Assembly: GCA_963791995.1 (NCBI GenBank) | Contig: CAWBUQ010000016.1 | Coordinates: 39,535 to 103,534 of the forward strand | From: an uncultured Acidimicrobiaceae bacterium | GTDB taxonomy: Bacteria; Actinomycetota; Acidimicrobiia; Acidimicrobiales; RAAP-2 | Direction: 5' to 3' | DNA length: 64,000 nt | Part shown: one piece after another, positions 13,893 to 30,984 of the stretch | How the letters are laid out: each line of letters starts with the position of its first letter | Numbering within the stretch: position 1 is the first letter of the stretch | The notes under the pieces: generated by a model | The model's input: the letters and a program-made list of their open reading frames with translations, nothing else | Database searches by the model: none | Told to the model about the DNA's origin: nothing | Translations under genes and position numbers: made by a program

Positions 13893-15631
13893 TCAGGCAG
13901 GGTTACGGTGTGCTGGGAGGAGCCGCTTGGCGTCGCGCTCGGCGTCGAGCACGCTGTCGAGTCGGGAGAGCTCGCCGGGCGCGTCCGCCACACGGTTGTG
14001 CCGCTCTTCGGGGTCCAGCGTCAGGTTGTGCAACTCGAATACTGGTTCGGCCGCCGGCCCCAGCATGGGGTTCGCGGCGATGCCGTGCGCGGCGTGCCAG
14101 TCGTCGAGGCGCTCGTAGTAGTGGTTCAGCTTCCACAACTCGGCTGACCCGTCCGCGCCGCTCGGGAGCTCGGCGATCACCGACTCGACGCGGCGACGGG
14201 TTCGACACGGCTTCGAACGCTTCGCCGTTGAAGAGCCCGTTCTGGGTCAGGCCCCGCGAGACGTCGTCCTCGGTCATGAAGTAGATCGGTGCGGATGCCG
14301 CTTCGGCCGGCGTCGATCCCCCGATCACCGCGCTGAGGTCCCGACCGGGCAGCGGTCGCGCCTCGTCGTGGTGCACGGACACGCCCGCGCTCGCCCGCTC
14401 CACGTCGATCCCGGCCAAGCCGAGCAGGGTCGGGACGAGGTCGACGTGGCTCGTGGGGAAGGTGACCCCGCCGTCGATACGGGCGACGCCGGGTCCCTTG
14501 ACGATGAGGGGCACGCGGATCGCCTCGTCGAACGCGTTGTACCACTTCTGCACCATCCCGCCGTGGGCGCCGCCCAGGTCGCCGTGGTCCGAGGTGAACA
14601 CGATGACGGTGTCGTCCGCCATGCCCGACGCCTCGAGCGCCTCGAGCACGCGGGCGATGGCGCGGTCGACCAATGTGTGCAAGTAGTAGTAGAGGCGGCG
14701 GTACGCCAGGTCGGGCGGCTGGTCGTAGAGGATCTTCGGCCACACCGCTTTCCACTGCTCCTGACACGCGGGGCGACCCGCGAACGAGTCGCGCTGCGAG
14801 GGCGCCTCCTCGACGTCTGGCACGCTGTCGTCGGGCGGCGGCGGCATCGACAACAGGTACTCCCAGCCGAAGCCGGCGAACGCGATGTCGTGCGGGTTCA
14901 CGAAGGAGGCCACCGTCAGCCACGGCCCGTCGGCACGCGCCGCGGCCAGCTCGTCGAAGAGCTCGACCACCTGCGTGGCGAAGACGCCGTCACGCACCAC
15001 ACCCGCATCGGCGCGTGCCGCGCCGTGCGGCTCGCGCCCGATCCACCCCGCGAACCCGTAGGGATCGAGGCGGTCCGCTCTACGGTACGCGTCGACGTTC
15101 GCCGGGACAGGGTTGCCGTCCGCGTCCGACGTCATCAACGACTCGTGGGTACCCGGAATCGTCAGGTCGGCGTGCGAGATGTGCCACTTGCCGCGGTAGT
15201 GCGTGCGGTAGCCGCCGGCGCGGAACCAGTCCCCGAGGGTGGGGACCGAGTCGGGGTCGAGCCAGTGCATGCCCGAATCGGTGGCCTGCTTGGCCAGGCC
15301 GTCGGTCTGCGACGACCCGTGCAGGGACGGGTACTGCCCGGTGAACAGCGTCGCCCGGCTCGGCAGACAGGCGGTGGACCCGGCGTAGTGACGGTGGAAC
15401 TCGAGGCCTCCGCTGCGGAGGGCCTGCGCGCGCGCCGAGGTGGTCGCGACGGAAACCGGCCACCGAGTCGGACTCGTAGGGGGGCGGGTAGCGCTCCTCG
15501 TCGGTCATGATCACAAGGACGTTCGGACTGTCCACTCGGGTCTTCCACTCCTCCGGGTCGCGCTCGGGCGAATGCGGGAGGCAGAACCTAGGAGATCGCC
15601 TCCATCGTCGCACGTCACCCGGTCCGCCCAT
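13893..15631 (-). CDS. Cys-type sulfatase (formylglycine-dependent), 2 frameshifts as assembled
   Basis: NVLVIMTDEE.., FGly motif C-L-P-S-R-ATLFTG (15355-15369), ..VIVFTSDHGDLGGAHG.. A possible longer Tat-like start (MGLRRVAARRRF, 15787) needs further frame corrections. Confidence 0.8.
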
Positions 15632-16197
15632 TCGGCCCTGGCCCAGGTCGGGCCGGTCGCCGGCGGCAACAGGGAATGCCCGCCGGTCGTCCGTCCCGCC
15701 TGCGACGACAACACAGACACAACCTGGTCCTGCACGCGCCCTCTCGGTCCGAAAACGACGGCGCGCCGCCACGCGCCGCAGGCCCATCGTGACCCGTTCT
15801 CCCAGCCCAGAGTGCATCTTTGGCGACTGTCTCGACCGTCTCCTGACCGTCCAGGGCAGACCCCTCACCGGGGCCGCCAGGGCGAGACATGCACTACACA
15901 CGCATGGGACAGGGAATCCCTAGCGTGTGCAGGCGATGAACCAGGCGGACCGCACTGTCGCGGGAACGACGAGGGCACTGCCCCGGCACGTCCCCACGGC
16001 GCGTCGCGCCTGCACCCTGGTCCCGCCCACCCCCTCCCTCGCCCCCCACCGGCGAGGCCGGCCGTGACCGACATCGCCTCCGACCCGGCCGCCGCCGCGG
16101 CAGCCGAGCTGCAGAACGCAGCAGCCTCGACGGCACCGACACCGCCCAGGGCGACACGTCCACGGCGGGCGCCGGCGGCGCGATCCAGAAGCGGGCG

Positions 16198-17591
16198 ATG
16201 CGCGGCGCCTCGTTCCTCTTCGGACGCGAGGCCATCGGATCGGTCGTGCGCCTCATCGGCGTGATCATCACCGTCCGCATGATCGGCCCGAGCAACTACG
16301 GCGTGTTCACCGCGGCGGCCGCCTACGTCGCGGTCATCGTGACCATCTGCCAGATGGGGTCAGAGGTCTTCCTCATCCGTGCCCACGAACAGCCCACCAA
16401 GCGGCTGAACAACGAGATCTTCACGTTGCTGCTGGTGACCTCGGTCGCATTGAGCGTCGTCGCGCTCGGCTTGACGTTCGTGCTGGCGCCTCTCATCAAG
16501 CCCGCGGGCACCCTCGTGCCGCTACGCGTGTTGCTCCTCTGCGTGCCGATCAACGCGCTGTGGGCACCAGCCCAGGCGCACATCGAGCGTGCCTTCGACT
16601 ACAAGAAGATGGGCATCCTCGAGCTCGGTGGCGACATCGTCCTCTACGCCGTCGCCGTGCCGTTGGCCCTCTTGCACTTCGGCGCCTGGTCGCTCGTCGC
16701 CGGCTATTTCGCCTGGCAGACCTTCCTGCTCGTCGGAAGCCTGCTCCTGTCGGGCCTGCGGCCGCGCCTGGCGTGGTCGACCAAGACGGCCAAGGACGTC
16801 ATCCGCCACGGCACCTCGTATTCGACCTCCATGCTGTTCGTCAACCTCGTCTTCGTGGTCCCCCCGATCGTCGTCGGGACGTTCGTCGGTGCGGCCGGCG
16901 TCGGCTACGTGTCGTTCGGGCGCAACCTCGTCAACACGGTCGGGTTCGCCAAGCGCGCCGCGTACCGCCTGGGCATCGTCACCATGGCCCAGATCAACCG
17001 CGACGACCCCAAGCTGTTCCGTCAGGGCCTCGAGCGCGGCGCCTTCTTGCTCACGCTGGCGCTGGGCGTGTCCCTTCGCCATCTTCGGACTGGGCGCGCA
17101 CTGGATCGTCCCCGCCCTCTTCGGACACGAATGGGCCGCCGCACTGCCGATCTTCTGCCTCCTCGCGCTGGGCTGGGTGCTCAACTCCATCGGGTCGGTC
17201 GAAGCCTCCCTCTTCTATGCGCTCGGGAAGAACACGGTGGTGGCGGTCGGACAGGGCCTCCAGGTGCTCTTCTTGTTCGTGCTCTCGATCCCGCTGGTCA
17301 AGTACTGGGGCGTCAACGGCTTCGGCGTCGCCTCGCTGCTCGCCATGGTTGCCTTCGTCTACCCGGATCGGACAGCTGCGCAAGCTCGCCACCTACTCCA
17401 TGGCCGCGACGATCGCGGTCTCGCTGATCCTCGCCCCCTCCATGTTCCTGCCGATCTTCCCGCCCTGGATCGGCCTGGTCCTCTTGCTGCCCTGGGTGCT
17501 GCTCTTCGTGGTCAAGTCGCTCCGGGAGCAGATCTTCGGGGTGCTCGACTCCCTCCGCTCGTCACTCCGGCGCAAGGTCGCAGTGGCATGA
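16198..17591 (+). CDS. Wzx/MOP-superfamily polysaccharide flippase (2 internal frameshifts as assembled)
   Basis: MRGASFLFGREAIGSVVRLIGVIITVRMIGPSNYGVF.. and about 12 predicted TM segments, pieced from ORFs 16198-, 16589- and 16560-17591. Possible upstream GTG at 16064. Confidence 0.75.
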
Positions 17592-18082
17592 CAGACGTCG
17601 TGACACCCCCTTCCTGCCGGGTCGGCGTGGACCTCGCCACCGTCGCCGACGTCGAGTCGGCCCTGGCTGCGCACGGGGAGCGCTACCTCCGGCGGGTCTT
17701 CACCCCCCATGAGCTGGACTGTTGTCGCAGGTCCGGCGGCTGGTCGGCCGAATCGCTCGCCGCCCGCTTCGCCGCCAAGGAGGCCACCATCAAGGTGCTC
17801 CAGCCCAGGGCCAACCAACCCGATTGGAACAGTATGGAAGTGCGGCGCCGCTCTGACGGCTCCTGCACCATGACCCTTTCGCGCACTGCGGCCGAGATGG
17901 CCGAGGCGGCCGGCATCACCGCGCTGTCGCTCAGCATGAGCCACGAGGGCGAGCAGGCCGCGGCGGTTGTGTTCGCCTTGTGCGGCCCGCCGCCCGGGAC
18001 CGCCCTCAGCCTCTCCGGCGGCGTCACGCCGGGACGAATCGAATTCGCAGCATGGAAAGAAAGGAAACCAGCAGATGCCTGA
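17588..18082 (+). CDS. 4'-phosphopantetheinyl transferase, AcpS type
   Basis: ATG overlaps the flippase stop (ATGA). VGVDLATVADVE..RVFTPHE..LAARFAAKEATIKVL..SLSMSHEGEQAAAVV is the holo-ACP synthase pattern. Confidence 0.8.
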   Translation: MTDVVTPPSCRVGVDLATVADVESALAAHGERYLRRVFTPHELDCCRRSGGWSAESLAARFAAKEATIKVLQPRANQPDWNSMEVRRRSDGSCTMTLSRTAAEMAEAAGITALSLSMSHEGEQAAAVVFALCGPPPGTALSLSGGVTPGRIEFAAWKERKPADA

Positions 18083-18347
18083 GCCCGCGCACCCCAACGA
18101 GGCGCGAGTCCGTTCCACGTTGGTCGAGCACGCCCGCCTGCCCGTGGACGTCGAGACGCTCCAGGTCTATGACGACTTGTTTCAAGCCGGGATGACCTCG
18201 CACGCCAGCGTCAACGTGATGCTTGCCCTCGAAGAGGAGTTCGACATCGAATTCCCCGAGGAGATGCTCCAGAAGTCGACCTTCGAGTCGATCGAAGCGA
18301 TCTGCTCGTCGATCGCCAGCCTCAGCACGATTGGAGACCCAGTATGA
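18075..18347 (+). CDS. Small carrier protein (ACP/PCP-like, 90 aa)
   Basis: ATG 18075 overlaps the PPTase end by 8 nt. DDLFQAGMTSHASVNVMLALEEEFDIEFPEE has a carrier-protein helix II with candidate Ppant Ser42 (18198-18200). Confidence 0.75.
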   Translation: MPEPAHPNEARVRSTLVEHARLPVDVETLQVYDDLFQAGMTSHASVNVMLALEEEFDIEFPEEMLQKSTFESIEAICSSIASLSTIGDPV

Positions 18348-19506
18348 GCTCGACAAAACTGCACGGCCACGAGGCCGCGGCGCGAGCGGCGACGATCGCC
18401 GCCGAGGTGACGGCGCCAGCGGCCGACGACGTCGACACCCGCTCTCGATTCCCCTTCGAGACCTTCGAGGCGCTCCAGGCCGACGGCCTCCTGGCCACGC
18501 TGGTCCCGATCGAGTTCGGGGGCATCGGCGCCACGCTGTCCGAGGCGGGTGACACCGTGACCGAGCTCGCCAAGGCCTGCTCCTCGAGCGGGATGATCCT
18601 GGCCATGCACCACCTCCAGGTGGCCTGCGTGGTCCGCCACGGGCAGAACGAAGCACTCCGGCAATTCCTGGCTGAGATCGCCAACGAGCAGTTGCTGCTG
18701 GCCTCGGCCACCACCGAGGTGGGCGTAGGCGGCAACACGCGCGAGAGCATCTGCGCCATTCAGCCGCACGAGCAGGGTTTCGAGCTGCAAAAGGCGGCGG
18801 GCGTCATCTCCTACGGCTCCTACGCCGACGCGGTGCTGGCGACAGCTCGGCGCAACGAGGACGCGCCGGCCAGCGACCAGGTGCTGGTCGTGTGTCGCGC
18901 CCCCGGCCTCAGCCTCGAGCAGACGGGCCAGTGGAACACGCTCGGCATGCGCGGCACCTGCAGCCCCGGCTTCGCACTGCGGGCCACGGGGTCCATGGAC
19001 ATGATCCTGCCGGTCGGCTTCGGCGAGGTCTCCGAGCGGACCATGCTCCCGGTGTCGCACATCCTGTGGGCCTGTGTCTGGCAGCGGCATCGCGTCGGCG
19101 GCCGTCGAGCGCGCCCGATCCATGGTCCGGGCCGAAGCCCGCAAGAACGTCGACGTGCTGCCCAAGGGCGCCCCGGCGCTGGCCGAGCTCCTGCTCCAGC
19201 AGCGCCAGCTCGAGGCCTTGGTCCAGGACGCCCTCGACGAATTCGACCGGCTCGATGCCTCGCCGCGTGCCGGCGTGCCCATGTCGTTCACCATCGCCAT
19301 GAACACGCTGAAGGTCGCGGCATCGCGCCTCGTCGTCGAGATCGTCTCGGGCGCTCTCATGCTCTGCGGAATGGCCGGCTACTCCCACGGCACGCCGTAC
19401 AGCCTGGGACGCCAGCTCCGCGACTCCTACAGCGCCGACGGTGATGATCAACAACACGCGGATCCTCGCCGACAACGCCCACATGCTCACGATCTCAAAG
19501 GGGTAG
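18344..19506 (+). CDS. Acyl-CoA dehydrogenase-family flavoprotein (2 frameshifts as assembled)
   Basis: ATGA overlap with the carrier gene. ..FPFETFEALQADGLL..ELAKACSSSGMILAMHH..ATTEVGVGGN..NTLGMRGTCSPGF..GYSHGTPYSLGRQLRDSYSA.. Confidence 0.8.
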
Positions 19507-19509
19507 ACG

Positions 19510-20412
19510 ATGACTGACACCACTGCTTTCGGCTCGGCTCTCGTCGAAAAGGGCCTGCTGTTCCCGACCGGGATCCTCGGCGTGCTGGGCCGCTCCCAGC
19601 AGTACGCGGACATCGCGGCCGGGCTCAACTCGATCGTCGACGCCTGGGGCGTCGAGCTTGGCGCGACGGGCATCCAGTTCCCGCCCATCGTGAACAAGGC
19701 GACGTTCGAGGAGACCAACTACGTCCAGTCCTTCCCCGACCTCATGGGGGCGATCCACGTCTTCACCGGCGGCAACAAGGAGCACGCGGAGCTCCTGCGG
19801 CGTTCGGAGTCGGGCAAGGACTGGTCGGACATGCTCGAGATGGCCGACGTGTTCCTGGCCTCTGCGGCCTGCCACCCGGTGTACCCGATGTGCACGGGCA
19901 CGCTGCCTGAGTCCGGGCGCTACTTCAACGTGTCGAGCTACTGCTTCCGTCACGAGCCGAGCGAGGACCCGGCGCGCATGCAGTCGTTCCAGATGCACGA
20001 GATCGTCTTCGTCGGCGACCCCGATGCGGCGCAGCAGCACCGCGACGCCGGGCTCGAGGTCGGCATCGACATCCTGCGCCGGCTCGGGCTCGAGATGGAC
20101 GTGATCGAAGCCAACGATCCCTTCTTCGGCCGCCTGGGCACCGCCATGGCCAAGGGCCAGAAGGAAGAGATCCTGAAACTCGAGGGCACGACGCCCATCG
20201 GGAGCCCCGACCACCCCGTGGCCATCATTTCGGGCAACTGCCACCGCGACCACTTCGGCACCCCGTTCTCGATCGAGACGGGGGATGGTGCGGTGGCCCA
20301 CAGCGCCTGTGTCGCCTTCGGCGTCGACCGGATCACGCTCGCCCTCTTGTACCATCACGGGCTCGACGTGAGCAGCTGGCCGGCCGAGGTCAAGGAGGCA
20401 TTGCGCTTGTGA
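19510..20412 (+). CDS. Truncated class-II aaRS homologue: amino acid:[carrier-protein] ligase type (SerRS-like catalytic core only)
   Basis: 300 aa with no tRNA-binding domain. Motif 2 YCFRHEPS (19945-19956), motif 3 ACVAFGVDRITLAL. Candidate Zn ligands C121 / E164 / C267, as in methanogen-type SerRS. Confidence 0.75.
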   Translation: MTDTTAFGSALVEKGLLFPTGILGVLGRSQQYADIAAGLNSIVDAWGVELGATGIQFPPIVNKATFEETNYVQSFPDLMGAIHVFTGGNKEHAELLRRSESGKDWSDMLEMADVFLASAACHPVYPMCTGTLPESGRYFNVSSYCFRHEPSEDPARMQSFQMHEIVFVGDPDAAQQHRDAGLEVGIDILRRLGLEMDVIEANDPFFGRLGTAMAKGQKEEILKLEGTTPIGSPDHPVAIISGNCHRDHFGTPFSIETGDGAVAHSACVAFGVDRITLALLYHHGLDVSSWPAEVKEALRL

Positions 20413-21407
20413 GGGTCCAGGTGCTCAATCTGGATCCGAGCACGTACGTCTCCCATCTCGTCCACGGCGACGAGCGGATGTGGCTCGAGTCGAACTGCGC
20501 GGCCGACCTCTGGATCGAGGTCCTGCACGGCGTCGGCCTCGAACCGCTCGCTGCCATGGGGTTCTTGCTCAGCGCCGGGTTCGACGGCGAGCAGTGGCGC
20601 ATGTTCAAGTTCTCCATGGAGGACGTGTGGCGGCTCTACGGGATCGACTGCTACGAGGTGAACCTCTGGCGCACCCTCCCGAACCACCTCGAGGACCACA
20701 TCGCCCTCGGCCGGATGATCACCATCGACGTCGACGCCTGGTGGCTACCCGACACCGAGGGGCTCACCTACAAGACCGCCCACCAGAAGACGACGGTGGC
20801 GGTCCAGATGATCGACGTGGAGGCCGGCCGCATCGGCTACTTCCACAACGGCGGCTACTACGAGCTCGGCGGCGAGGAGTACGAGCGGCTGATCGCTGAC
20901 GAGGCCGTGGCGGTCATCCCGCCCTACGCCGAGGCGATCGACCTCGAGCACCTCCGACGCGACGAGGACCTGCGGCCGCTGGCCCTCGAGCTCGCCCGTG
21001 AGCATTTCGCCCGCCGGCCCACGGCCAACCCGGTCAGCGAGATGCGCAAGCGTCTGGAGGGCGACCTCCCCTGGCTCGTCAGGGACGGGATCGACACATT
21101 CCACCGCTACGCCTTCGGGTCGATCCGCCAGTGCGGATCCAACGCGGAGCTGGCCGTGGACTACGTGCGCTGGCTGGCCGCCGGCCCGGGCGCTCCCGAG
21201 ACGAGCACCGCGTCCGAGCAGAGCTCCAGGAACGGCGACGCCGCCGCCGAGGCCTTTCTCACCGTCTCCAAGAAGGCGAAGGCGCTGGAGTTCCAACTCG
21301 CCCGCGTGCTGCGGGGCAAGCAGATCGCACTGGCGGAGGTGATGTCGGAGATGGAGTCCGCCTGGGAGGATGCCATCGAGGCCACAGCCGCCTTGCTCTA
21401 TGGCTGA
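20409..21407 (+). CDS. Conserved protein of unknown function (resembles DUF1839; family name from memory only)
   Basis: Intact 332-aa ORF. GTGA overlap with the ligase stop and an 8-nt overlap with the next gene. N-terminal ..WLESNCAADLWIEVLHG.. has a Cys/His pair. Confidence 0.6.
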   Translation: MRVQVLNLDPSTYVSHLVHGDERMWLESNCAADLWIEVLHGVGLEPLAAMGFLLSAGFDGEQWRMFKFSMEDVWRLYGIDCYEVNLWRTLPNHLEDHIALGRMITIDVDAWWLPDTEGLTYKTAHQKTTVAVQMIDVEAGRIGYFHNGGYYELGGEEYERLIADEAVAVIPPYAEAIDLEHLRRDEDLRPLALELAREHFARRPTANPVSEMRKRLEGDLPWLVRDGIDTFHRYAFGSIRQCGSNAELAVDYVRWLAAGPGAPETSTASEQSSRNGDAAAEAFLTVSKKAKALEFQLARVLRGKQIALAEVMSEMESAWEDAIEATAALLYG

Positions 21408-23892
21408 CCTGCTCGAGCACGCGGCCTGGTCGTGTGCTCGCACATCGCCGGGCCTCCTCGACGGGGCGGACCCTTCTGCGCTCGACGCGCTCGACTGGAT
21501 GCCCGCGTCCGTCCCGGGCACTGCGGCCGAGGCCCTCGCCGCCGTCGGCGCCCCCGACGTGGCGGACCATGACTACGACGCGGAGGACTGGTGGTTCCGC
21601 TGCCGCTTCCCCGGTGGGCCCGGGACCTGGCAGCTGCAGCTGCACGGCATCGCCACCCTGGCCGACGTCTGGGTCAACGGGTCCCAGGTGGCCCGGACCG
21701 AGAACATGTTCGTGCGCACCTCGGTCACGCTCGAGGGGCTGGGGGACGACAACGAGCTCGTCATCCGCTGCGAAGCGCTGTCCCCCGCCCTGGCGGTCAA
21801 ACGGCCCCGGCCGCGTTGGCGGACCACCCAGGTCGAGAACCAGGCGCTGCGCTGGTTCCGCACCACCCTCTTGGGCCGGATCCCCGGCTGGGCGCACACC
21901 CCCCGCACCGTCGGGCCGTGGCGGCCCGTTGCCGTCACCCAGGACAACGGCCCGCTGAACGGTGCCCTCGACACCTTCGTCCATGCGTCGTGCGATGGCG
22001 AGAGCGGCCGCGTCGACGTCGCCCTGCGCTTCGCGGGCGTGCCCGGCTGGGCCGAGGAGTCCGGCGACGGGGCGCCCGTGCTGGTCTGCCTGGGCCGCGA
22101 GGCCACCTTCGAGGTGGAGCACGAGGGCTCCGATGTGACGCTGCGCGCGTCGCTGCCCGTCACCGGGTTCGAACGGTGGTGGCCCCATACCCACGGCTCC
22201 CAGCCGCTCTACGAAGTCGGGCTGCGATTGGGCGGCGTGGTCCATCCCCTCGGGCGCGTCGGGTTCCGCACGGTGGAGGTCGACCGCTCCGACGGCGGCT
22301 TCACCTTCGTCGTCAACGGCGTCCCGATCTTCGTCAGAGGCGCGAATTGGTTCCCGCCCGATCCCGTCAGCCGGCACGCCGGCGACGACGAGGTGCGGCG
22401 GCGCCTGGGGCTCGCCCGCGAGGCCAACCTCAACATGGTGCGCATCCCGGGCACCACGGCCTACGCCGACCGATCGGTCCTCGACGCCTGCGACGAGCTC
22501 GGCCTGTTGCTCTGGCACGACTGCATGTTCGCCTTCATGGACTACCCCGACGACGAGGGGTTCGTCGCCGGCGTCCGCCAGGAGTTGCGCCAGGCCTTCG
22601 CCGACCTGTCCGGGCATCCGGCGCTGGCCATCGTGTGCGGGAACCAAGAAGTCGCCGAGATCGCCGCCATGAACGGTGGCGGCCAGACCGGCTTCGAGTC
22701 CGAGCTCTTCGACACCGTCATCCCCGCGCTGACCGCCGCGTTGCTGCCCGGCGTCGAGTTCGTGGCGTCGAACCCGGGGGGCGGCGACCCCGTCTACCGG
22801 CCCGACACCGGCGTGAGCCAGTACTTCGGTCTCGGGGGCTACCTGCGCCCGCTCAACGCGCTGCGCCGTGACGACGTGCGCTTCGCGGCGGAGTGCCTCT
22901 GTTACGCCACACCACCCGAACCAGAGGCCGTCACCCGGCTGGGCGGCGCCAACATCGCCGTGCACGACCCCACGTGGAAGGTGGGCATCCACCACGACCC
23001 GGGCCGGTCCTGGGACATGGACGACGTCCGCGCCTTCTACATGCGGGAGGTCTTCGGGGTCGACCCGCTGTGGGAGCGCTACTCCGATGCCGAGCGCGCG
23101 CTCGATCTGGGCCGGGCCACCAACGCCTTCTTGATGCAGTACGTCTTCACCGAGTGGCGCTGCAACGAGCGGGCCGGTGGCGGCCTGGTGCTCGGCCTCC
23201 ACGACCTGGCGCCGGGGGCGGGCTGGGGCCTATTGGACGTGACGGGCCAACCCAAGGCACCGTGGTACGCCATGCGACGAGTCTCGGAGCCGATCTGCGT
23301 CCTCCTCGTCGACGAAGGCCTGAACGGGCTGTGCGCCCACGTGTGCAACGACTCGGCAGAGGCCTTCAGCGGTGAGCTCGCCGTCGATCTCTACACCAAC
23401 GGCGAGACCCTGAGCACGCAGGCCGTCCGCCCGGTGAGCGTCAAGGCCCGGGGCGCCGAGATCGTCAATCTTTACAACCTCTTCGACGAATTCACCGACC
23501 TCAACTACGCCTACCGCTTCGGGCCGCCCACATATGACGTCATCGCGGTGACCCTCAAGGACACCGCGGCTTCGGTGGTCTCCGACTCCGTCCTGCTGCC
23601 TCTCGGCCAGGCCCGTCCACTCGAGGCCGACATCGGCCTGCGTGCCGTCGTGCACTCGGACGACTCGACCGGGGGTCCGCCCCAGGTGCACGTCACGACC
23701 CGTCGCTTCGCCCAGTGGGTCTCGGTGAACGCGCCGGGCTTCCGACCGTCGGACTCCTGGTTCCATCTGCCGCCCGGGTCCGAGCGCGTCGTCACGCTGC
23801 ACGACTGCGAACCGTCGCGCCCCGCGCGGGGCCGGGTGCGGGCGCTCAACTCCACGGTGGCGGCGGTGATACGACCCGAGGAGGACTCGTGA
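21400..23892 (+). CDS. GH2-family beta-mannosidase-like protein, no signal peptide
   Basis: Intact 830 aa. ..GIATLADVWVNG..VRGANWFP.., LLLWHDCMFAFMDYP, ALAIVCGNQEVAE (acid/base region) are GH2 beta-mannosidase/exo-glucosaminidase-like patterns. Confidence 0.8.
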   Translation: MADLLEHAAWSCARTSPGLLDGADPSALDALDWMPASVPGTAAEALAAVGAPDVADHDYDAEDWWFRCRFPGGPGTWQLQLHGIATLADVWVNGSQVARTENMFVRTSVTLEGLGDDNELVIRCEALSPALAVKRPRPRWRTTQVENQALRWFRTTLLGRIPGWAHTPRTVGPWRPVAVTQDNGPLNGALDTFVHASCDGESGRVDVALRFAGVPGWAEESGDGAPVLVCLGREATFEVEHEGSDVTLRASLPVTGFERWWPHTHGSQPLYEVGLRLGGVVHPLGRVGFRTVEVDRSDGGFTFVVNGVPIFVRGANWFPPDPVSRHAGDDEVRRRLGLAREANLNMVRIPGTTAYADRSVLDACDELGLLLWHDCMFAFMDYPDDEGFVAGVRQELRQAFADLSGHPALAIVCGNQEVAEIAAMNGGGQTGFESELFDTVIPALTAALLPGVEFVASNPGGGDPVYRPDTGVSQYFGLGGYLRPLNALRRDDVRFAAECLCYATPPEPEAVTRLGGANIAVHDPTWKVGIHHDPGRSWDMDDVRAFYMREVFGVDPLWERYSDAERALDLGRATNAFLMQYVFTEWRCNERAGGGLVLGLHDLAPGAGWGLLDVTGQPKAPWYAMRRVSEPICVLLVDEGLNGLCAHVCNDSAEAFSGELAVDLYTNGETLSTQAVRPVSVKARGAEIVNLYNLFDEFTDLNYAYRFGPPTYDVIAVTLKDTAASVVSDSVLLPLGQARPLEADIGLRAVVHSDDSTGGPPQVHVTTRRFAQWVSVNAPGFRPSDSWFHLPPGSERVVTLHDCEPSRPARGRVRALNSTVAAVIRPEEDS

Positions 23893-25707
23893 TGACCGGT
23901 GCGCCCGTCCCGACGGACCCCGCCACTGCGGCTGCTCCTGCCACCCCGACCACCCCGGCCAGCGTGCGGGCGACGCCGGTCTACTTCGGTCCACAGGAAA
24001 GGCCGCTCTTCGGCTGGGTCCACCAACCGGCCGACGGGCTCTCCCGCGGCACGGTCATCATGTGCGAGCCCCTGCTGCGCGAGTACATCAGTGCGCACTA
24101 CACCTTTCGTGTCCTGGCCGAGGCCCTGGCCGCTCGAGGCATCACGGCCATCCGCTTCGACTACGACGGCACCGGCGACTCGGCGGGCGACGACTCCGAT
24201 CCGGGTCGGATCGACGCCGCGGTGGCCTCCATCGGGCACGCCGTCGATCTGGCGCGGAGCCTGGGCCCGACTCGGCTCGCCCTCATCGGCATGCGCCTCG
24301 GCGCGTTGCTGGCGTCCAAGGCCGTCGAACACGACACGTCGATCTCCGAGCTCGTGCTCTGGGATCCCTGCGGCTCGGGACGCGACTTCCTGCGGGCGCA
24401 GTCAGCCCTCTTCCGGATGCGCTACGGGAAGGCAAAACGAGAAGACGGCAGCACGGAAGTTCCCGGTTTCGTGCTCTCGACCCAGACCGTCGAAGAACTG
24501 TCGGCGCTGGCGGCACCCACCTCGCTCCCTTCGATCGAGCACGCGCTGATCCTCGATCGCTCCGACCGCCCCGCGTCAGGGACCTTCGGCGTCGACGAGA
24601 GCCGGATCGAACGCCTCGAGGCGACCGGTCAAGCCGGGCTCATGGACATCGAGCCTTTCTTCAACACAGTGCCGTCCACGGCGATCGAGAGCATCGCCGA
24701 CTGGTTCGACGGGGTCTTTCCGACCGAGCGTGCCGCGCGAGTCGCAACCGGCAACCGACGCCATTACGGTGCGAGCCAAAGACGGATCCCGGGTCAGCGA
24801 GCGCGTCGTCACGCTCGGGCCGCACGACTTGTTCGGGATCCTGGCGACCGGCGATGCCGAGCCGACCGGCCCACCGGTTCTGTTCCTCAACAGCGGGAGG
24901 GATCCCCACACGGGCCCCAACCGGATGTGGGTCGACCTCAGCCGGGAATGGGCCGCGTTGGGCTTCCCCTGTTACCGCTTCGACCTCAGTGGCCTCGGGG
25001 ACAGTCCGGTCCGCCCCGGGCAGGTACCCAACCGCGTCCGGGTGGCCGAGGCGTTCGACGACGTGGTCGATGCCGTGGCCGACGTGGTGGGTGGCCCGTC
25101 GAACGGCCGGCCCGACGGCGCGTCGGACGGCGCGTCGGACGGCGAGGTCGCACCCGTCGTGCTGGCCGGGCTGTGCGCCGGTGCCTACCAGGTGCTCGAG
25201 AGTGCGATCGATCTGCGCCCGCGGTCGGTCCTCTCGGTCAACCCGATCCTGCGGTTCCAGCCGTGGGAGGTCGATCTGGGCGGGCCGATGGACCCGCGAC
25301 GACGGTTCTGCAAGCCCGCCGGCAGCCTGCGCCAGACCTACCGGGCGCTGCCGTCGTGGAAGATCCTGCGACTGGCCCGCGCTCGCTACCTCACCTTCGC
25401 CGGCAGGCTCTCACGTCAGCGCACATCGATCGACTGGCTCGAGGAGGCAGCCGCGCAGGGGACTGACATTCTGTGCATCTGTGGAGAAGAAGAGGCGGTG
25501 CCCTTCTTCGAAGGCGTGTCGGCCGATCGCACGACGGTGGAAGACGAGCGCTGCCGGCTCCAGGTGATCCCTGGTCTCGACCATGGGCTCATGATGGCCG
25601 GGGACCGCGTGCAGGTCGCCTCCCTCCTCACCGCGCACATCTCATCGCTGTTCCCTCACGGCGCGACAACGGCTCGGACCGACACGTCGCAGCCGTCGAA
25701 CTCGTAG
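23889..25707 (+). CDS. Tandem (two-domain) alpha/beta-hydrolase-fold protein, 1 frameshift near 24760
   Basis: GTGA overlap with the GH2 stop. Domain 1: RFDYDGTGDSAGD.. with box G-M-R-L-G (24288-24302, no nucleophile). Domain 2: RFDLSGLGDSP.. with box G-L-C-A-G (25168-25182). Confidence 0.7.
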
Positions 25708-25756
25708 TCGCGCCCGCGATCGGAATGCTCAGACACCGAAGCGCGTTGTTCTGTAG

Positions 25757-26326
25757 GTGGACTACCGGCTCCTCCTGATTTCGGGCAGCCTGCGTGAAGG
25801 CTCGACCAATACGGCCGCGCTGCGATCGATCCAAGCGGCGCCGCCGCGTGGCGTGCACGCCTCCTTCTACGACGAGCTGGCCGGCCTGCCCGCCTTCAAC
25901 CCCGATCTCGACACCGGCGCACCGCCACCCGAGGTCGACCGCCTGCGAACCCGCATCCATCGTTCGGACGCGCTCGTGTTCTCGACACCAGAATACGCAG
26001 GAGCCCTCCCGGGGTCGTTGAAGAACCTGCTCGATTGGACCATCGGCGATGAAGACGCCGACTCCGTCTACGAGAAACCAGTTGCATGGCTGAACGCCTC
26101 GCCACGAGGTGCCGCGGGCGCGCACGCGGAGCTGCGAACCGTCCTCGGGTACGCGGACGCCACCATCGTCGAAGCGGCGTGCATGACAGTGCCGGTGACG
26201 CAGGCCATGCTGGGCACCGACGGCCTGGTGAAGGATCCCGCCGCCCTCGACCAGATGCACACGATGCTGCAGCGCCTGACGGCGCGACTGGCATCAGTCT
26301 CGGGCTCGGGGTCGCCTCGGCCCTAA
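25757..26326 (+). CDS. NAD(P)H-dependent FMN reductase family protein
   Basis: LLLISGSLREGSTNTA..ALVFSTPEYAGALPGSLKNLLDW is the FMN_red pattern. It starts 49 nt after the hydrolase gene on the same strand. Confidence 0.8.
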   Translation: MDYRLLLISGSLREGSTNTAALRSIQAAPPRGVHASFYDELAGLPAFNPDLDTGAPPPEVDRLRTRIHRSDALVFSTPEYAGALPGSLKNLLDWTIGDEDADSVYEKPVAWLNASPRGAAGAHAELRTVLGYADATIVEAACMTVPVTQAMLGTDGLVKDPAALDQMHTMLQRLTARLASVSGSGSPRP

Positions 26327-26934
26327 CTCGTGGCGAGCGTGCCGGGATCGCCGGGATGACCGAGCTCGCGGCCATCGAGCGCACTGAGCACACCGACAAC
26401 ACCGAGCACACCGAGGTGCTCGAGGCCCACATAGCCGGCCCACCCGTCCGTCAACTGGCCGGACTGCAGCCGCCGATGAAACTCCTCCGCTGACACGAGG
26501 ATCGCCTCACAGAACTCCTCCGAGGGGTCCAGTTCCGGTTCGCGTACCCTCCGGCAGTCCATGGCGACCGCCGCCCATTTGCGTCGCGTGATGTTGGCGC
26601 CCTGCCAGGTATGGCCGATCACCGTCAGGTCGCCCACGTATCCGGTCTCTTCTGCCAATTCCCGACGCGCCGCTTCGAGCGGTGACTCGCCGTCACCGAG
26701 CTCCCCTCCGGGCAATTCGTCGAGCATGCAGGCGGGACCCGGACGGAACTGGCGCGCCAGGATCATCTGTCCGTCCTCGGTGACGGCGACCACCGCGACG
26801 GCATCGCGCGTCGTCATGACGTCCCAGTCGACGTCGGCGCCGTCGGGCATGCGGTAGGTCTTGGTCACGACCTCGATCCATCCGTTCGGACCACGTCGCT
26901 GCCCGATCAATTTCCAGGGTTGCGCTTCGGACAT
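26323..26934 (-). CDS. NUDIX hydrolase
   Basis: Nudix box GGELGDGESPLEAARRELAEETGY. Start taken at MSEAQPWKL (26934). Confidence 0.8.
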   Translation of the reverse strand: MSEAQPWKLIGQRRGPNGWIEVVTKTYRMPDGADVDWDVMTTRDAVAVVAVTEDGQMILARQFRPGPACMLDELPGGELGDGESPLEAARRELAEETGYVGDLTVIGHTWQGANITRRKWAAVAMDCRRVREPELDPSEEFCEAILVSAEEFHRRLQSGQLTDGWAGYVGLEHLGVLGVVGVLSALDGRELGHPGDPGTLATS

Positions 26935-27137
26935 CTGACCCTTTCGCGAGGTACTGCACGGCAGACCATCAGTCTCCTGGGTGCCGCCGGACATGACAAA
27001 ACGAGCGAGGCTTTCGCTCGAGCGGCGACACGACCACGACGCCGTCGTCCGCCTCGCCCTGCGGGAACGAAGCAGCGCGCGGCCGCGTGCGGGCGTGTGC
27101 GAGGATGTCGGGGTCCGGCGATGCAGAGGGGGCTGGA

Positions 27138-28865
27138 ATGGCATCGATTCGATTCGTTCGCGTGCTGTGCAGTGTCGCGCTGCTGGCGGGCCTGTTCACC
27201 GTTGTGACCGCTGCCGTGACGCCTGTTCTCGCCTCGGGCGGGACCCCCGTCCCTGGCGCTCCGAACTGCCCGATGTTCCCCGCCGACAACGTGTGGAACA
27301 CGCCCATCACCAACTTGCCGGTCGATTCGCATTCCGCCGCGTGGCTGGCCAGCATGGACGCCGGCTCGACCAACCTGCACCCCGACTTCGGGCCGTCGGG
27401 TGATCCTGCAAATCCCTATGGCATGCCGTACACGGTTGTCGCACCTAACCAACCCTTCGTCAGCGTGGCGTTCCAGTACGGGAGCGAGAGCGACCCCGGG
27501 CCGTACCCGCTCGGGGCGAACACGCCGATCGAAGGAGGGCAGAGTTCGACCGGTGATCGCCACGCCCTCATGGTGGACCCGAGCACCTGCACGCTCTACG
27601 AGCTCTACGACGCGCACTACAACGCCTCGGGATCGACGGCCGGGTCTGGCGCCATCTGGAACCTCAACTCCAACGCCCTGCGCCCGGCGGGGTGGACCTC
27701 TGCTGACGCGGCGGGTCTGCCCATCCTGCCCGGACTGGTCCGCTACGACGAGGTCGAGTCGGGCAGCATCACGCACGCCATCAGGATGACCGCGGAGACG
27801 ACCGACACCAGCTACGTCTGGCCGGCGCGGCACGAGGCGGGATCGAGCTCGAACTCCAACCTGCCGCCGATGGGAGCCCGATTCCGGCTGAAGGCCAGCT
27901 TCAACATCAGCGGGTTCTCGCCCCAGGCCCAAGTGGTGCTCCGGGCGATGCAGCAGTACGGACTGATCCTCGCCGACAACGGCAGCAACTGGTACTTCGG
28001 CGGTACCGCCGACCCGGCATGGCCACAATCGCTCGTCGACGAGTTGAAGGAGGTCCCGGCCAGCGAGTTCGAGGCGGTCGACGAATCGTCGCTCATGGTG
28101 AACCCGGACTCGGGCCAGGCTCGCAGCTTCCCTGGCCCGGTGACGGGCATCGCAGCACCGCCGTCGGGATCGGGGTACTGGCTCTCGGACGCCGAGGGTG
28201 CGGTCTCGGCGCACAACGTGGCGAGTGACGGCTCCATGGCGGGTACGCCGTTGAATGCGCCCATCGCCCACATCGTCTCGACTCCTGACGGCGGTGGTTA
28301 CTGGCTCGTGGCGGCCGACGGCGGCACGTTCGCTTTCGGCGATGCGGGATTCTTCGGTTCCATGGGCGGCACACATCTCAATGCGCCCGTCGTGAACATG
28401 GCCCCGACCCCGGACGGCCGTGGCTATTGGCTGGTGGCCAAAGACGGCGGCGTCTTCGCCTTTGGCGATGCGCCTTATTTCGGGTCCATGGGTGGCAGGC
28501 ACCTCAATGCGCCGATCGTGGGCATCGCCGCAGACCCACAGACGGGCGGATATTGGCTGGTGGCGTCCGACGGCGGGATCTTCGCCTACAACGCACCCTT
28601 CTATGGATCGACTGGCAACATCCACCTCCAGCAACCGGTGAACGGCATGACCACGGCATCCGGTGGGGGCGGGTACTGGATGGTGGCGTCTGACGGCGGG
28701 ATCTTCGCCTTCGGCCTCGCTCCATTCTGGGGCAGCACCGGGGCTATCCGCCTCAACGCGCCCGTGATGGGCATGGCCGAGGACGTGGCATCAGGGGGCT
28801 ACTGGATGGTCGGCTCCGACGGGGGCGTCTTCTCCTTCAACGCGCCGTTTTACGGTTCCGACTGA
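27138..28865 (+). CDS. Secreted protein: conserved N-terminal domain of unknown function plus six C-terminal repeats of about 40 aa
   Basis: GAGGGGG before ATG 27138. Signal peptide MASIRFVRVLCSVALLAGLFTVVTAAV. The ORF is intact. Confidence 0.8.
   Translation: MASIRFVRVLCSVALLAGLFTVVTAAVTPVLASGGTPVPGAPNCPMFPADNVWNTPITNLPVDSHSAAWLASMDAGSTNLHPDFGPSGDPANPYGMPYTVVAPNQPFVSVAFQYGSESDPGPYPLGANTPIEGGQSSTGDRHALMVDPSTCTLYELYDAHYNASGSTAGSGAIWNLNSNALRPAGWTSADAAGLPILPGLVRYDEVESGSITHAIRMTAETTDTSYVWPARHEAGSSSNSNLPPMGARFRLKASFNISGFSPQAQVVLRAMQQYGLILADNGSNWYFGGTADPAWPQSLVDELKEVPASEFEAVDESSLMVNPDSGQARSFPGPVTGIAAPPSGSGYWLSDAEGAVSAHNVASDGSMAGTPLNAPIAHIVSTPDGGGYWLVAADGGTFAFGDAGFFGSMGGTHLNAPVVNMAPTPDGRGYWLVAKDGGVFAFGDAPYFGSMGGRHLNAPIVGIAADPQTGGYWLVASDGGIFAYNAPFYGSTGNIHLQQPVNGMTTASGGGGYWMVASDGGIFAFGLAPFWGSTGAIRLNAPVMGMAEDVASGGYWMVGSDGGVFSFNAPFYGSD
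28173..28862 (+). repeat. Six tandem coding repeats (39-42 aa): GYW[LM]V..DGG.F.FG.A.F.GS.G...LNAP..G.A
   Basis: Repeat starts are read from the translation (GYWLSDAEG.., GYWLVAADGG.., GYWLVAKDGG.., GYWLVASDGG.., GYWMVASDGG.., GYWMVGSDGG..). A beta-propeller-blade periodicity is inferred. Confidence 0.7.
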
Positions 28866-29591: not shown

Positions 29592-29663
29592 AGGGGTGTA
29601 GTCCAGCGGAACGGACAGCCGGCTCCAACCCGGCGGACCTGGGTTCTACTCCTGCCACCCCTG
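29592..29663 (+). tRNA. tRNA-Trp(CCA), non-canonical T arm
   Basis: Acceptor AGGGGTG/CACCCCT, D arm GTCC/GGAC, anticodon stem GCCGG/CCGGC, loop CTCCAAC. T stem weak (CTGGG/CCTGC), T loop TTCTACT. Confidence 0.6.
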
Positions 29664-29789
29664 CAGGGCGAAGCCATGTCCTTTTTGCCTAAATGGGCAA
29701 TTGAACCACCGTACATTGACAACTAAATAGTACCCAAGATTGGGGATCGGAGCCACGTCTATTGGCGCGGCGACACCGACCGATCCCGC

Positions 29790-29873
29790 CCCGGTGACCT
29801 CTGTTGGCTAGAGGAGCGCGGCCGTAACCCGCGCGGCATTGTGCCTGCGGTCGTTCGATTCGACCCACCGGGA
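29790..29873 (+). tRNA. tRNA-Tyr(GTA), class II, C33
   Basis: Acceptor CCCGGTG/CACCGGG, anticodon stem CGCGG/CCGCG, loop CCGTAAC, long variable arm GGCA-ttg-TGCC, T arm GGTCG-TTCGATT-CGACC. Confidence 0.6.
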
Positions 29874-29877
29874 CCCT

Positions 29878-29953
29878 GGGCCCATGGCACGAGTGGTAGT
29901 GCACCTCGTTTGCAGCGAGACGCGTGCCGGTTCGAGCGCGGCCGGGTCCACCA
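29878..29953 (+). tRNA. tRNA-Ala(TGC) with G3:U70 and encoded CCA
   Basis: Acceptor GGGCCCA/CGGGTCC (G3:U70, A7.C66), D arm GCAC-GAGTGGTA-GTGC, loop TTTGCAG, T arm GCCGG-TTCGAGC-GCGGC (G53.G61), 3' ACCA. Confidence 0.65.
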
Positions 29954-30036
29954 CGCGGGCGGAAAAGGAAGACGCGCTGGGCTCAGACCCCGGTGGGCTC
30001 ACGCCCGTGAGAGTTCGACTCGCTCCGCTGGTACCA
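29950..30036 (+). tRNA. tRNA-Leu(CAG), class II, imperfect acceptor stem, encoded CCA
   Basis: D region GCGGAAAAGGAAGACGCG, anticodon stem CTGGG/CCCGG, loop CTCAGAC, variable arm GGGC-tcac-GCCC, T loop TTCGACT, 3' CGCTGGT-A-CCA. The 5' ACCACGC pairs only 4 of 7. Confidence 0.5.
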
Positions 30037-30037
30037 G

Positions 30038-30111
30038 GCGCCTCTAGCTCAGTTGGGAGAGCGATGGACTCTTAATCCATGCCGTCGGGGGGTCGAGTCC
30101 CTGGGGGCGCA
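30038..30111 (+). tRNA. tRNA-Lys(CTT), T loop lacks T54
   Basis: Acceptor GCGCCTC/GGGGCGC, D arm GCTC-AGTTGGGA-GAGC, anticodon stem ATGGA/TCCAT, loop CTCTTAA. T region GGGGG-GTCGAGT-CCCTG. Confidence 0.65.
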
Positions 30112-30199
30112 CTCGGCCGGAGTCATCCGGTCACACGCGTGGCTTCCACCCACGAGTAATGGGGGCGGTACCCATTGACCCCTCCATTCACGCAACCGC

Positions 30200-30269
30200 T
30201 CGGGAGTCGTCCAACGGCAAGACGCAAGGTTTGGTCCTTGAGATGAGGGTTCGACACCTTCCTCCCGAA
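30200..30269 (+). tRNA. tRNA-Gln(TTG)-like (or Pro TGG) with a 6-nt anticodon loop as assembled
   Basis: Acceptor TCGGGAG/CTCCCGA (U1:A72 as in bacterial tRNA-Gln), D region GTCCAACGGCAAGAC, anticodon stem CAAGG/CCTTG, loop TTTGGT, T arm GAGGG-TTCGACA-CCTTC. Confidence 0.5.
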
Positions 30270-30478
30270 CCGCCAGAAAGGAGGCGATTCAATGCGACAC
30301 AATCGGTTGAAGCTCGTCGTTCCCGACGACGCAGCAAAGAATGAGACGGAAGACGCGACCGAGTTCGTCGTAGGACCGGCGACGCCGGGTCCTTCTGCGG
30401 CGCGCCTTCGTCTCGTCGAGCGACGACGATGGACCGTTTCCGGACGGACGCGGCGTGACCAACTGTCGCTCGAGAATT

Positions 30479-30551
30479 GCCGGCCGGGCCCAACGGGATG
30501 GGCACTGGCTTTGTAACCCAGTCGATCCGGGTTCGAGTCCCGGGGCCGGCT
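30479..30551 (+). tRNA. tRNA-Thr(TGT)
   Basis: Acceptor GCCGGCC/GGCCGGC, D arm GCCC/GGGC, loop TTTGTAA (one C.C at the stem end), T arm CCGGG-TTCGAGT-CCCGG. Confidence 0.8.
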
Positions 30552-30554
30552 CGA

Positions 30555-30626
30555 GGTCATGTAGCTCAGTTGGGAGAGCGCGCGCCTGAAACCCTCGAGG
30601 CGATGGATCGAGACCACCCATGACCA
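30555..30626 (+). tRNA. tRNA-Phe(GAA)-like, poor anticodon stem and A54 T loop (possibly a pseudo-tRNA)
   Basis: Acceptor GGTCATG/CATGACC, D arm GCTC-AGTTGGGA-GAGC, loop CTGAAAC but the stem pairs 3 of 5. T region GATGG-ATCGAGA-CCACC. Confidence 0.45.
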
Positions 30627-30631
30627 CTTCG

Positions 30632-30706
30632 GGACACATAGCTCAGCGGCAGAGCGCCGGCACGACACGCCGGAGGTCGGGCTTTCGAAACGCCCTGTGT
30701 CCACCA
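30632..30706 (+). tRNA. tRNA-Val(GAC), C33, encoded CCA
   Basis: Acceptor GGACACA/TGTGTCC, D arm GCTC/GAGC, anticodon stem CCGGC/GCCGG, loop ACGACAC, T arm GGGCT-TTCGAAA-CGCCC, 3' A-CCA. Confidence 0.7.
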
Positions 30707-30715
30707 GTCATCTGA

Positions 30716-30787: not shown

Positions 30788-30792
30788 CCCGA

Positions 30793-30864: not shown

Positions 30865-30887
30865 CGTGGGCGCAGGCGTCCCCACTT

Positions 30888-30960: not shown

Positions 30961-30984
30961 CGGGTCTTATGACCCGCAACGCAA

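Follow-up and report, generated by a model that had tools for sequence, protein, structure and literature searches.

A free-standing class-II synthetase core from an uncultured Acidimicrobiaceae bacterium belongs to the amino acid:[carrier protein] ligase family and lies in a carrier-protein operon

Amino acid:[carrier protein] ligases (aa:CP ligases) have been known as a family since 2010 and were reportedly described by Mocibob et al. (PNAS 2010; Structure 2013). The characterized relatives use Gly or Ala. According to two reviews they do not aminoacylate tRNA (PMC5370406; PMC9437257), and, according to the 2022 review (PMC9437257), it was still unknown what carrier-protein aminoacylation by these enzymes does in the cell. 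In methanogen-type seryl-tRNA synthetases (SerRS), an active-site zinc ion is held at Cys/Glu/Cys positions (PMC7373986). Here we analyzed a stretch of 64,000 nucleotides from an uncultured Acidimicrobiaceae bacterium (hereafter the window) and, within it, an open reading frame (ORF) that an earlier sequence-only reading had picked out as the catalytic core of a class-II aminoacyl-tRNA synthetase (aaRS) without a tRNA-binding domain. Our results show that this ORF is a bona fide member of the aa:CP ligase family. Its features are as follows.

19510-20412, plus strand: aa:CP ligase ORF, 300 amino acids (aa), ATG start
Ligase motif 1: around FPPIV, residues 57-61
Ligase motif 2: residues 144-151, with R147 and E149
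Ligase motif 3: residues 266-279, with R274
Ligase putative zinc ligands: C121, E164 and C267

The ORF of 300 aa was present as the sequence-only reading had given it, with motif 2 as YCFRHEPS and motif 3 as ACVAFGVDRITLAL. An in-frame TAG stands two codons 5' of the ATG, and the ORF therefore cannot extend N-terminally or be the C-terminal part of a longer protein; a purine-rich AAAGGGG lies a few bases 5' of the same ATG. The GC content at third codon positions (GC3) of 0.93, in a region of 67-70% GC, is the signature of a real gene in the source genome.

Membership in the family was assigned with the NCBIfam model NF005479 (PRK07080, amino acid--[acyl-carrier-protein] ligase), which scored 377.5 bits against an equivalog cutoff of 357 (E 4e-113), with residues 4-299 of the ligase matching model positions 19-316 of 318. 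The best sequence match in the PDB was Bll0957 of Bradyrhizobium japonicum (eight entries, E 7e-67, residues 17-299 aligned), to which BLASTP gave 40% identity over 277 aa (E 1e-77), followed by the SerRS of Methanopyrus kandleri (E 1.5e-10) and of Methanosarcina barkeri (E 0.096). With the SerRS equivalogs NF002120 and TIGR00415 the ligase scored 59.2 bits against a cutoff of 611 and 49.9 against 489.55, and the match to the SerRS model was confined to its C-terminal catalytic part (positions ~306-504 of 518). No GlyRS (glycyl-tRNA synthetase) equivalog was matched by the ORF in the NCBIfam search and a separate GlyRS is encoded in the window, in agreement with the earlier statement that the ORF is not the housekeeping Gly enzyme. 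The gene is an ordinary family member, and the annotation pipeline PGAP already names its close relatives.

A model of the ligase built with AlphaFold2 on 55 homologues had a mean predicted local distance difference test (pLDDT) score of 92, a predicted TM score (pTM) of 0.90 and a single domain. Foldseek superposed it on seven Bll0957 entries at TM 0.92-0.94 and a root-mean-square deviation of 1.7-2.0 Å over ~295 residues, one of these entries being the complex with the carrier protein. Methanogen-type SerRS was the next fold match, at TM 0.78-0.82 when normalized to the query and ~0.5 when normalized to the target; only about half of the SerRS chains, the catalytic half, is covered by the model, and therefore their N-terminal tRNA-binding domain has no counterpart. 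The prediction that 300 aa leave no room for such a domain is borne out by this coverage, by the match to all of Bll0957 and by the upstream TAG. The sequence comparison gave the same picture, with an alignment that runs end to end with Bll0957 and reaches only the catalytic core of methanogen-type SerRS.

The active-site residues were compared in the same way. In HMMER alignments the counterparts of C121, E164 and C267 in the Bll0957 PDB chain are Cys151, Glu196 and Cys299. In the M. barkeri SerRS chain E164 is matched by Glu375 and C267 by Cys481, and in M. kandleri SerRS C121 is matched by Cys319. All three residues, as well as R147, E149 and R274, are invariant in the 55 homologues, which share 54-86% identity. 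The Cys/Glu/Cys triad that had been proposed from the sequence at the zinc-site positions of methanogen-type SerRS, and which we regard as putative, is thus borne out as far as alignment and model superposition reach. The class-II core alignment held as well: the ligase aligns to Bll0957 and to the SerRS entries 3W3S and 2CIM, with the motif-2 fRxE (146-149) and R274 invariant. Between motifs 2 and 3, residues ~207-220 (GRLGTAMAKGQKEE) show a gapless alignment with GRVGQMKAVSQKQQ of Bll0957, the sole stretch that differs between the chains of 3MEY and of 4H2W (engineered Bll0957, in which this loop was reportedly swapped). The segment is helical in our model, at a lower pLDDT of 73-81, and going by PDB entry titles we take it to be the carrier-protein-binding loop, a feature specific to the family. 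The ligase is a free-standing, probably homodimeric class-II aaRS catalytic core of methanogen-type SerRS descent, with zinc as a predicted constituent.

The SerRS lineage of the protein, a 12-tRNA array 9 kb downstream and the name seryl-tRNA synthetase given to such proteins by JGI would suit a truncated synthetase that is still directed at tRNA, charging in trans or feeding a transferase like VlmL of valanimycin biosynthesis. We regard this as very unlikely indeed, as the protein has no tRNA- or anticodon-binding domain and covers only the catalytic half of SerRS, its scores are far under the SerRS equivalog cutoffs, the characterized family members do not charge tRNA (see the reviews cited above), and a carrier protein and a 4'-phosphopantetheinyl transferase (PPTase) are encoded in the same operon. 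Moreover, unrelated genes lie between the array and the operon, and the array was not seen in the flanks of related loci. Equally little credence is given to a catalytically dead aaRS paralogue with a regulatory or scaffold role like HisZ. Domain-poor aaRS-like proteins sometimes lose catalysis (review PMC9437257), but here the motif-2 Arg/Glu, the motif-3 Arg and the putative zinc ligands are invariant in all 55 homologues and identical to those of the active Bll0957.

The aa:CP ligase gene is one of eight genes at 16198-25707, the others being the following.

16198-17591, plus strand: Wzx/MOP-family polysaccharide flippase, first gene of the operon (Pfam Polysacc_synt_3, E 2e-30, and Polysacc_synt; weak NCBIfam MOP flippase match)
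17588-18082, plus strand: AcpS-type PPTase (Pfam ACPS, E 1e-15; TIGR00556, 77.7 bits against a cutoff of 45.35)
18075-18347, plus strand: aminoacyl carrier protein, 90 aa, with the phosphopantetheine serine Ser42, the S of GMTS in GMTSHAS (NCBIfam NF005480; Pfam PP-binding)
18344-19506, plus strand: flavoenzyme of the acyl-CoA dehydrogenase (ACAD) fold (Pfam Acyl-CoA_dh_N and Acyl-CoA_dh_1, one on each of two frames)
20409-21407, plus strand: DUF1839 protein, 332 aa (Pfam PF08893, E 2e-95)
21370-23892, plus strand: glycoside hydrolase family 2 (GH2) protein, beta-mannosidase-like, 840 aa (Pfam Glyco_hydro_2_N2, E 4e-16)
23892-25707, plus strand: tandem alpha/beta-hydrolase with two hydrolase domains (Pfam Hydrolase_4 and Abhydrolase_6 on both halves)

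Stops and starts of these genes overlap or nearly abut, with ATGA or GTGA overlaps and a 3-nt gap, and at the head of the run the Wzx stop overlaps the PPTase ATG by 4 nt as ATGA. The eight genes are one translationally coupled operon of 9.5 kb.

The carrier-protein gene lies two genes upstream of the ligase gene, as had been noticed from the sequence, with the ACAD-like gene between them. Its product scored 98.5 bits with the NF005480 (PRK07081) equivalog, whose cutoff is 72, and its best PDB matches were aminoacyl carrier proteins of aa:CP ligases: Atu2571 (4H2W chain C, 2JQ4) at E ~1e-14 to 4e-15 and the Bll0957 partner (4H2S chain C) at 2e-4. DltC-type carrier proteins were weak matches. 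Ser42, in the GxxS motif, aligns with the second Ser of GLSSFAS. The PPTase gene is located directly upstream of the carrier-protein gene and is kept at this position in the loci L001-L011 (Acidimicrobiaceae), L016 (Priestia) and L019 (Acidimicrobiales); the enzyme is expected to convert the carrier protein from the apo to the holo form. With the equivalog cutoff passed and with carrier protein and PPTase in the operon, the interpretation of the ORF as an aa:CP ligase is supported.

The ligase family proved to be a sizeable one. More than 3800 sequences matched at E <= 1e-5 in a word-indexed search, and 193 clusters at 50% identity were found at E <= 1e-30 among 1.84 billion representatives. 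Matches were also present in 114 plasmid or chromid records, from Rhizobium, Azospirillum, Burkholderia, Mycetohabitans, Priestia, Streptomyces and others. JGI/IMG labels the family seryl-tRNA synthetase, where NCBI uses amino acid--[acyl-carrier-protein] ligase. The JGI label is a systematic misannotation that could inflate counts of SerRS paralogues, and the practical lesson is that some pipelines still call aa:CP ligases by this name.

The gene order flippase-PPTase-ACP-ACAD-ligase-DUF1839-GH2-hydrolase (ACP, acyl carrier protein) recurs in most of 11 Acidimicrobiaceae loci, with the flippase syntenic in 8 of the 11 and GH2 kept in 8. The shorter cassette ACP-ACAD-ligase-DUF1839-GH2-tandem hydrolase is common to Acidimicrobiia, Alpha- and Betaproteobacteria and is unchanged in Azospirillum oryzae and Mycetohabitans endofungorum. 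Rhizobium carries a bare four-gene form, ACP-ACAD-ligase-DUF1839, between insertion sequence (IS) elements. On the Priestia megaterium plasmid NZ_CP085444.1 (L016, 6148-14695) the order is acpS-ACP-ACAD-ligase-drug/metabolite transporter (DMT)-ATP-grasp-alpha/beta hydrolase-alanine permease-alanine racemase, with a D-Ala-D-Ala ligase (Ddl) upstream, and this variant suggests an alanine-based product in Bacillota. The gene of a Bradyrhizobium orthologue of Bll0957 (89% identity) is directly preceded by an ACAD gene and has a carrier-protein gene as a neighbor. The B. diazoefficiens gene bll0958 bears the annotation acd, and in a phaR mutant the levels of its product and of Bll0957 go up together (PMC10888616). 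As a possible hidden relative of DUF1839 we considered the 294-aa protein encoded after the Bradyrhizobium orthologue, and rejected it (no Pfam match, hhalign probability 0.1). Two further loci stand among glycan genes: the ligase gene of an Acidimicrobiales relative (L019, 73% identity) lies directly behind genes for a priming glycosyltransferase (Bac_transf), Wzz, Wzy and Wzx, and the Tsukamurella homologue is embedded in an exopolysaccharide cluster among glycosyltransferases.

The putative functions of the two conserved neighbors DUF1839 and ACAD were analyzed next to that of the ligase. The AlphaFold2 model of DUF1839 (pLDDT 94) has a bipartite architecture, in which an alpha/beta domain is followed by a helical C-terminal one. 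Across 60 homologues Cys30, at the N-terminus of a helix, and His146 do not vary. Its sole significant fold matches in the PDB were AziU3/U2 and CtaG (Foldseek E 1e-5 to 4e-4, TM 0.42-0.55). CtaG, like AziU2/U3 a carrier-protein-dependent enzyme, is a ligase of the papain-like kind; its catalytic Cys accepts an acyl group from a carrier protein, and the group is then handed over to an amine. The paper on CtaG also puts BtrH, AsbE and MllDE in its class and reports the same bipartite architecture (PMC12865890). A survey had placed DUF1839 among papain-like proteins, with a C-(T/S)-H triad and a guessed role in glycan processing, and BtrH acylates a sugar, namely an aminoglycoside (PMC10318531). 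Our literature search found no paper linking DUF1839 to the CtaG class or to aa:CP ligases. From fold and context we infer that DUF1839 may be a carrier-protein-dependent transacylase that off-loads the tethered group.

The ACAD-like protein stayed under every NCBIfam equivalog cutoff and was about equally similar to true ACADs and to oxygenases of the ACAD fold (DnmZ, KijD3-type amino-sugar N-oxygenases, DszC, SfnB). Its orthologues carry M-I-(N/G/S)-N-(D/T)-R (L002, 2305-3462; L013, L014, L016 and L017) at a site that we take to be the position of the catalytic Glu, Y-E-G-T, of medium-chain ACAD. The protein presumably acts on the carrier-bound aminoacyl group.

The explanation that accounts best for these findings, and which we hold with high confidence, is that the ORF encodes an aa:CP ligase that loads the co-encoded carrier protein, to which a conjectured off-loading pathway toward a surface glycan is added. 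The AcpS-type PPTase would prime the carrier protein (18075-18347) on Ser42. By homology with the crystallized and characterized Bll0957, the ligase would bind a small amino acid via the zinc site C121/E164/C267, convert it with ATP to the aminoacyl-adenylate using R147/E149 and R274, and then load the carrier protein, with its phosphopantetheine thiol and not a tRNA as the acceptor of the aminoacyl group. Conserved gene context and predicted folds suggest the subsequent steps. The ACAD-fold flavoenzyme may modify the tethered aminoacyl thioester by oxidation or N-oxygenation, and the papain-like DUF1839 would then take over the group in a ping-pong reaction with a Cys-acyl-enzyme of the CtaG/BtrH type and transfer it further; the most likely acceptor belongs to a surface polysaccharide made by the Wzx/Wzy route and would be one of its sugars or its lipid-linked repeat unit. 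Wzx would flip the decorated lipid-linked unit, and GH2 and the tandem alpha/beta-hydrolase may act on the same glycan. That the aa:CP ligase family as a whole serves as the loading enzyme, for Gly, Ala or a similar amino acid, of a widespread thiotemplated module for glycan decoration is a tentative proposal, which we think rather doubtful at present. If true, the cassette would be a new route to amino-acid-derived substituents on surface polysaccharides that is independent of nonribosomal peptide synthetases (NRPS).

The destination of the aminoacyl group could be a different one. With the ligase assigned correctly, the cassette could make a soluble small molecule (a dipeptide-like, N-acyl or other NRPS-independent product), and the adjacency of Wzx would then be incidental or serve export. 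The Priestia plasmid cassette, with its DMT transporter, ATP-grasp enzyme, alanine permease, alanine racemase and Ddl, looks like small-molecule or peptide chemistry, the Rhizobium form is a bare four-gene cassette between IS elements, and the Bradyrhizobium locus has aminotransferases and no glycan genes. Likewise, the structural relatives of DUF1839, namely CtaG, AziU2/U3 and, following the CtaG paper, BtrH, AsbE and MllDE, all belong to natural-product pathways. However, the flippase and PPTase genes share 4 nt, synteny of the flippase gene extends to most of the Acidimicrobiaceae loci, a full set of priming transferase, Wzz, Wzy and Wzx genes lies directly upstream in the Acidimicrobiales relative, the Tsukamurella ligase gene is found among glycosyltransferases, GH2 is part of the conserved cassette across three bacterial classes, and BtrH itself acylates the sugar of an aminoglycoside (PMC10318531). 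A small-molecule product is accordingly a possibility that we take seriously without expecting it to be the answer, and glycan decoration is retained as the working model for the operon.

Frame breaks in the operon bear on both the gene calls and the question of whether the pathway is functional. Comparison with intact orthologues, taken from L002 and from the short-read Acidimicrobiales contig L019, located five frameshifts in the operon: two in Wzx (~17070 and ~17390), two in the ACAD-like gene (~19079 and ~19437) and one in the hydrolase gene (~24757). Wzx is read in three frames, as a tblastn search with the intact 528-aa L019 orthologue gave three high-scoring segment pairs (HSPs) in frames 1, 2 and 3. 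Both breaks in the ACAD-like gene are 1-nt frameshifts, the first being an extra A, TGGC[A]GCGGC, and the orthologues in L002, L013, L014, L016, L017 and L019 are intact. The hydrolase gene is split into two ORFs, for which the L019 protein gave tblastn HSPs in frames 3 and 1 meeting at 24757. A sixth frameshift is located at ~51120-51134 in the GlyRS gene, and all six are of a single base.

50890-52237, minus strand: glyQS-type GlyRS, single-copy (NF003211, 511.7 bits against a cutoff of 312)

This gene had been described as a normal glyQS. Its presence at these coordinates was verified, with the true end at 50890, and two corrections were made: the gene lies on the minus strand, and it carries the frameshift.

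The indel density of the operon is ~1 per 1.9 kb, and therefore a 0.9-kb ORF such as that of the ligase would be intact by chance with a probability of ~60%. The sequence-only reading had stressed an intact ORF in an error-prone assembly. The assembly is indeed ridden with indels, but intactness of the ligase ORF is no evidence in itself, and we rejected it as an argument for selection. The nearest genomes are Acidimicrobiaceae metagenome-assembled genomes (MAGs) of the MFD series. Since GlyRS, which is essential, is also frameshifted, the frameshifts are most likely consensus errors of a long-read MAG.

Were the frameshifts real, the operon would be a decaying relic in which an intact ligase remains without a working pathway. 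Five of them fall within 9.5 kb relative to intact orthologues, and the first ACAD indel, an inserted A, lies outside a homopolymer. A relic is nevertheless improbable: the frameshift in the single-copy essential GlyRS of the same window speaks for errors in the consensus, frames are broken at scattered sites in a similar way in the long-read MAG assemblies of the nearest relatives (for example L003, L005, L010 and L011), and the GC3 of the ligase together with its high amino-acid conservation indicates purifying selection in the lineage. Any ORF-based reading of the window needs frame-aware comparison.

Several observations weigh against our preferred explanation. The function of the ligase is predicted by homology to Bll0957, and its zinc site, placed by alignment and superposition, is putative. 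The zinc ligands were reportedly numbered C131/E176/C279 in Bll0957 and C306/E355/C461 in M. barkeri SerRS, and this numbering agrees with our alignments only on the condition that a tag of 20 residues is present in each of the two PDB chains. With the Pfam class-II core model the ligase scored 18.3 bits, under the gathering score of 29.3, which is typical for this divergent lineage. As for DUF1839, its likeness to CtaG is at the level of the fold only (TM about 0.5), and when its profile was searched against PDB sequences nothing but designed coiled coils came back, at E >= 0.1. Three of the 11 Acidimicrobiaceae loci lack DUF1839 and GH2, as do L019 and the Priestia, Tsukamurella and Bradyrhizobium loci. 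The homologue of Caulobacter sp. S45 (40% identity) has no ACP, ACAD or DUF1839 gene nearby, and therefore the cassette is not universal. In addition, the frameshifted ACAD-like, flippase and hydrolase genes could mean that the operon is decaying, though the GlyRS frameshift argues for sequencing error. The pathway model is the weaker part of our explanation, the family assignment the stronger.

A single ligase gene matters little, as it can be annotated automatically; the added value lies in the conserved operon context. The cassette, the DUF1839 prediction and the embedding among Wzx/Wzy genes give a concrete and testable hypothesis for the orphan aa:CP ligase pathway. Since the same cassette occurs in cultivable and genetically tractable bacteria (Azospirillum, Rhizobium, Agrobacterium, Mycetohabitans), this hypothesis can be tested without the uncultured Acidimicrobiaceae source.

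Further observations were made on the last genes of the operon and on its surroundings. No obvious signal peptide was seen in the GH2 protein on inspection by eye; its orthologues at the same cassette position in Azospirillum and Mycetohabitans carry the annotation GH2 or beta-mannosidase. Where the hydrolase is encoded by one intact gene (L019, L014), the orthologues have 578-596 aa and show two matched stretches each, and the tandem hydrolase showed a weak match to the model for exosortase-A-associated hydrolase 1. At the gathering threshold Rfam found tRNAs only in the window, with no riboswitch upstream of the operon that would hint at the amino acid, and a promoter and terminator scan of 15200-27000 was uninformative.

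Directly after the operon lies a gene for an NADPH-dependent FMN reductase (25757-26326, plus strand). Such a reductase would suit an ACAD-fold monooxygenase of the two-component type, but we rejected it as part of the system, as it is not kept beside the cassette in any related locus examined. A 622-aa ORF (26997-28865, plus strand) has coding-like GC3 and no Pfam match, and its C-terminal half is internally repetitive, as seen from staggered tblastn matches to L006. Genes for further glycan-related proteins flank the operon, namely for a sulfatase, for a GH43 hydrolase that ends in a DUF732 tail and for a cellulose-synthase-like glycosyltransferase of family GT2, at 13903-15504 (minus), 31440-33131 (plus) and 33117-35174 (minus). 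The tRNA array mentioned above comprises 12 genes within 1.5 kb (29592-31058, plus strand), in the order Trp, Tyr, Ala, Lys, one with an aberrant anticodon loop (30200-30271), Thr, Phe, Val, Ile, Val, His and Met. Their Rfam scores of 32-53 bits are low for tRNAs, and the array lies within a stretch of lower GC (60-66% against ~70%, 28-40 kb); it may be an acquired island or a phage-derived array.

Among known systems the closest is Bll0957 (glycine:[carrier protein] ligase 1; representative PDB entries 3MEY, 3MF1, 3PZC and 4H2S), together with two relatives, Atu2573, which is Gly-specific like Bll0957 itself, and the Ala-specific Bll6282. It shares with the window ligase the length of ~300-330 aa, the lack of a tRNA-binding domain, the motifs, the Cys/Glu/Cys positions, the NCBIfam equivalog and an adjoining carrier protein and ACAD-like gene. 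The window ligase differs in coming from Actinomycetota, class Acidimicrobiia, and in an N-terminus shorter by ~15-25 residues, and its carrier protein is closer to Atu2571 (E 4e-15) than to the Bll0957 partner (E 2e-4). The window operon adds AcpS, DUF1839, GH2, the tandem hydrolase and the upstream Wzx. In place of DUF1839, the 294-aa protein without Pfam match is encoded at the Bradyrhizobium locus. Methanogen-type SerRS (M. barkeri 2CIM/2CJ9, M. kandleri 3W3S) has the catalytic-core fold, motifs 2 and 3 and the Cys/Glu/Cys positions in common with the ligase. However, identity is only 16-20%, the N-terminal tRNA-binding domain is absent from the ligase, and the predicted acceptor is a phosphopantetheine thiol instead of the 3' end of tRNA.

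The CtaG/BtrH/AsbE class resembles DUF1839 in an invariant Cys at a helix N-terminus, an invariant His and a gene beside those for a carrier protein and a loading enzyme. It differs in that identity is 8-13%, TM is 0.42-0.55 and there is no sequence-level match; moreover, the triad reported for DUF1839 is not Cys-His-Asp but C-(T/S)-H, in which positions are swapped (PMC10318531). Finally, D-alanylation of teichoic acids by DltA/DltC is a functional analogue only, in which a stand-alone ligase and a small dedicated carrier protein likewise bring an amino acid to a surface polymer. DltA is an adenylating enzyme of the ANL superfamily and not homologous to class-II aaRS, and the Dlt system works without a flavoenzyme, a papain-like transferase or GH2, whereas for the window operon these would accompany a glycan destination that the gene context suggests.

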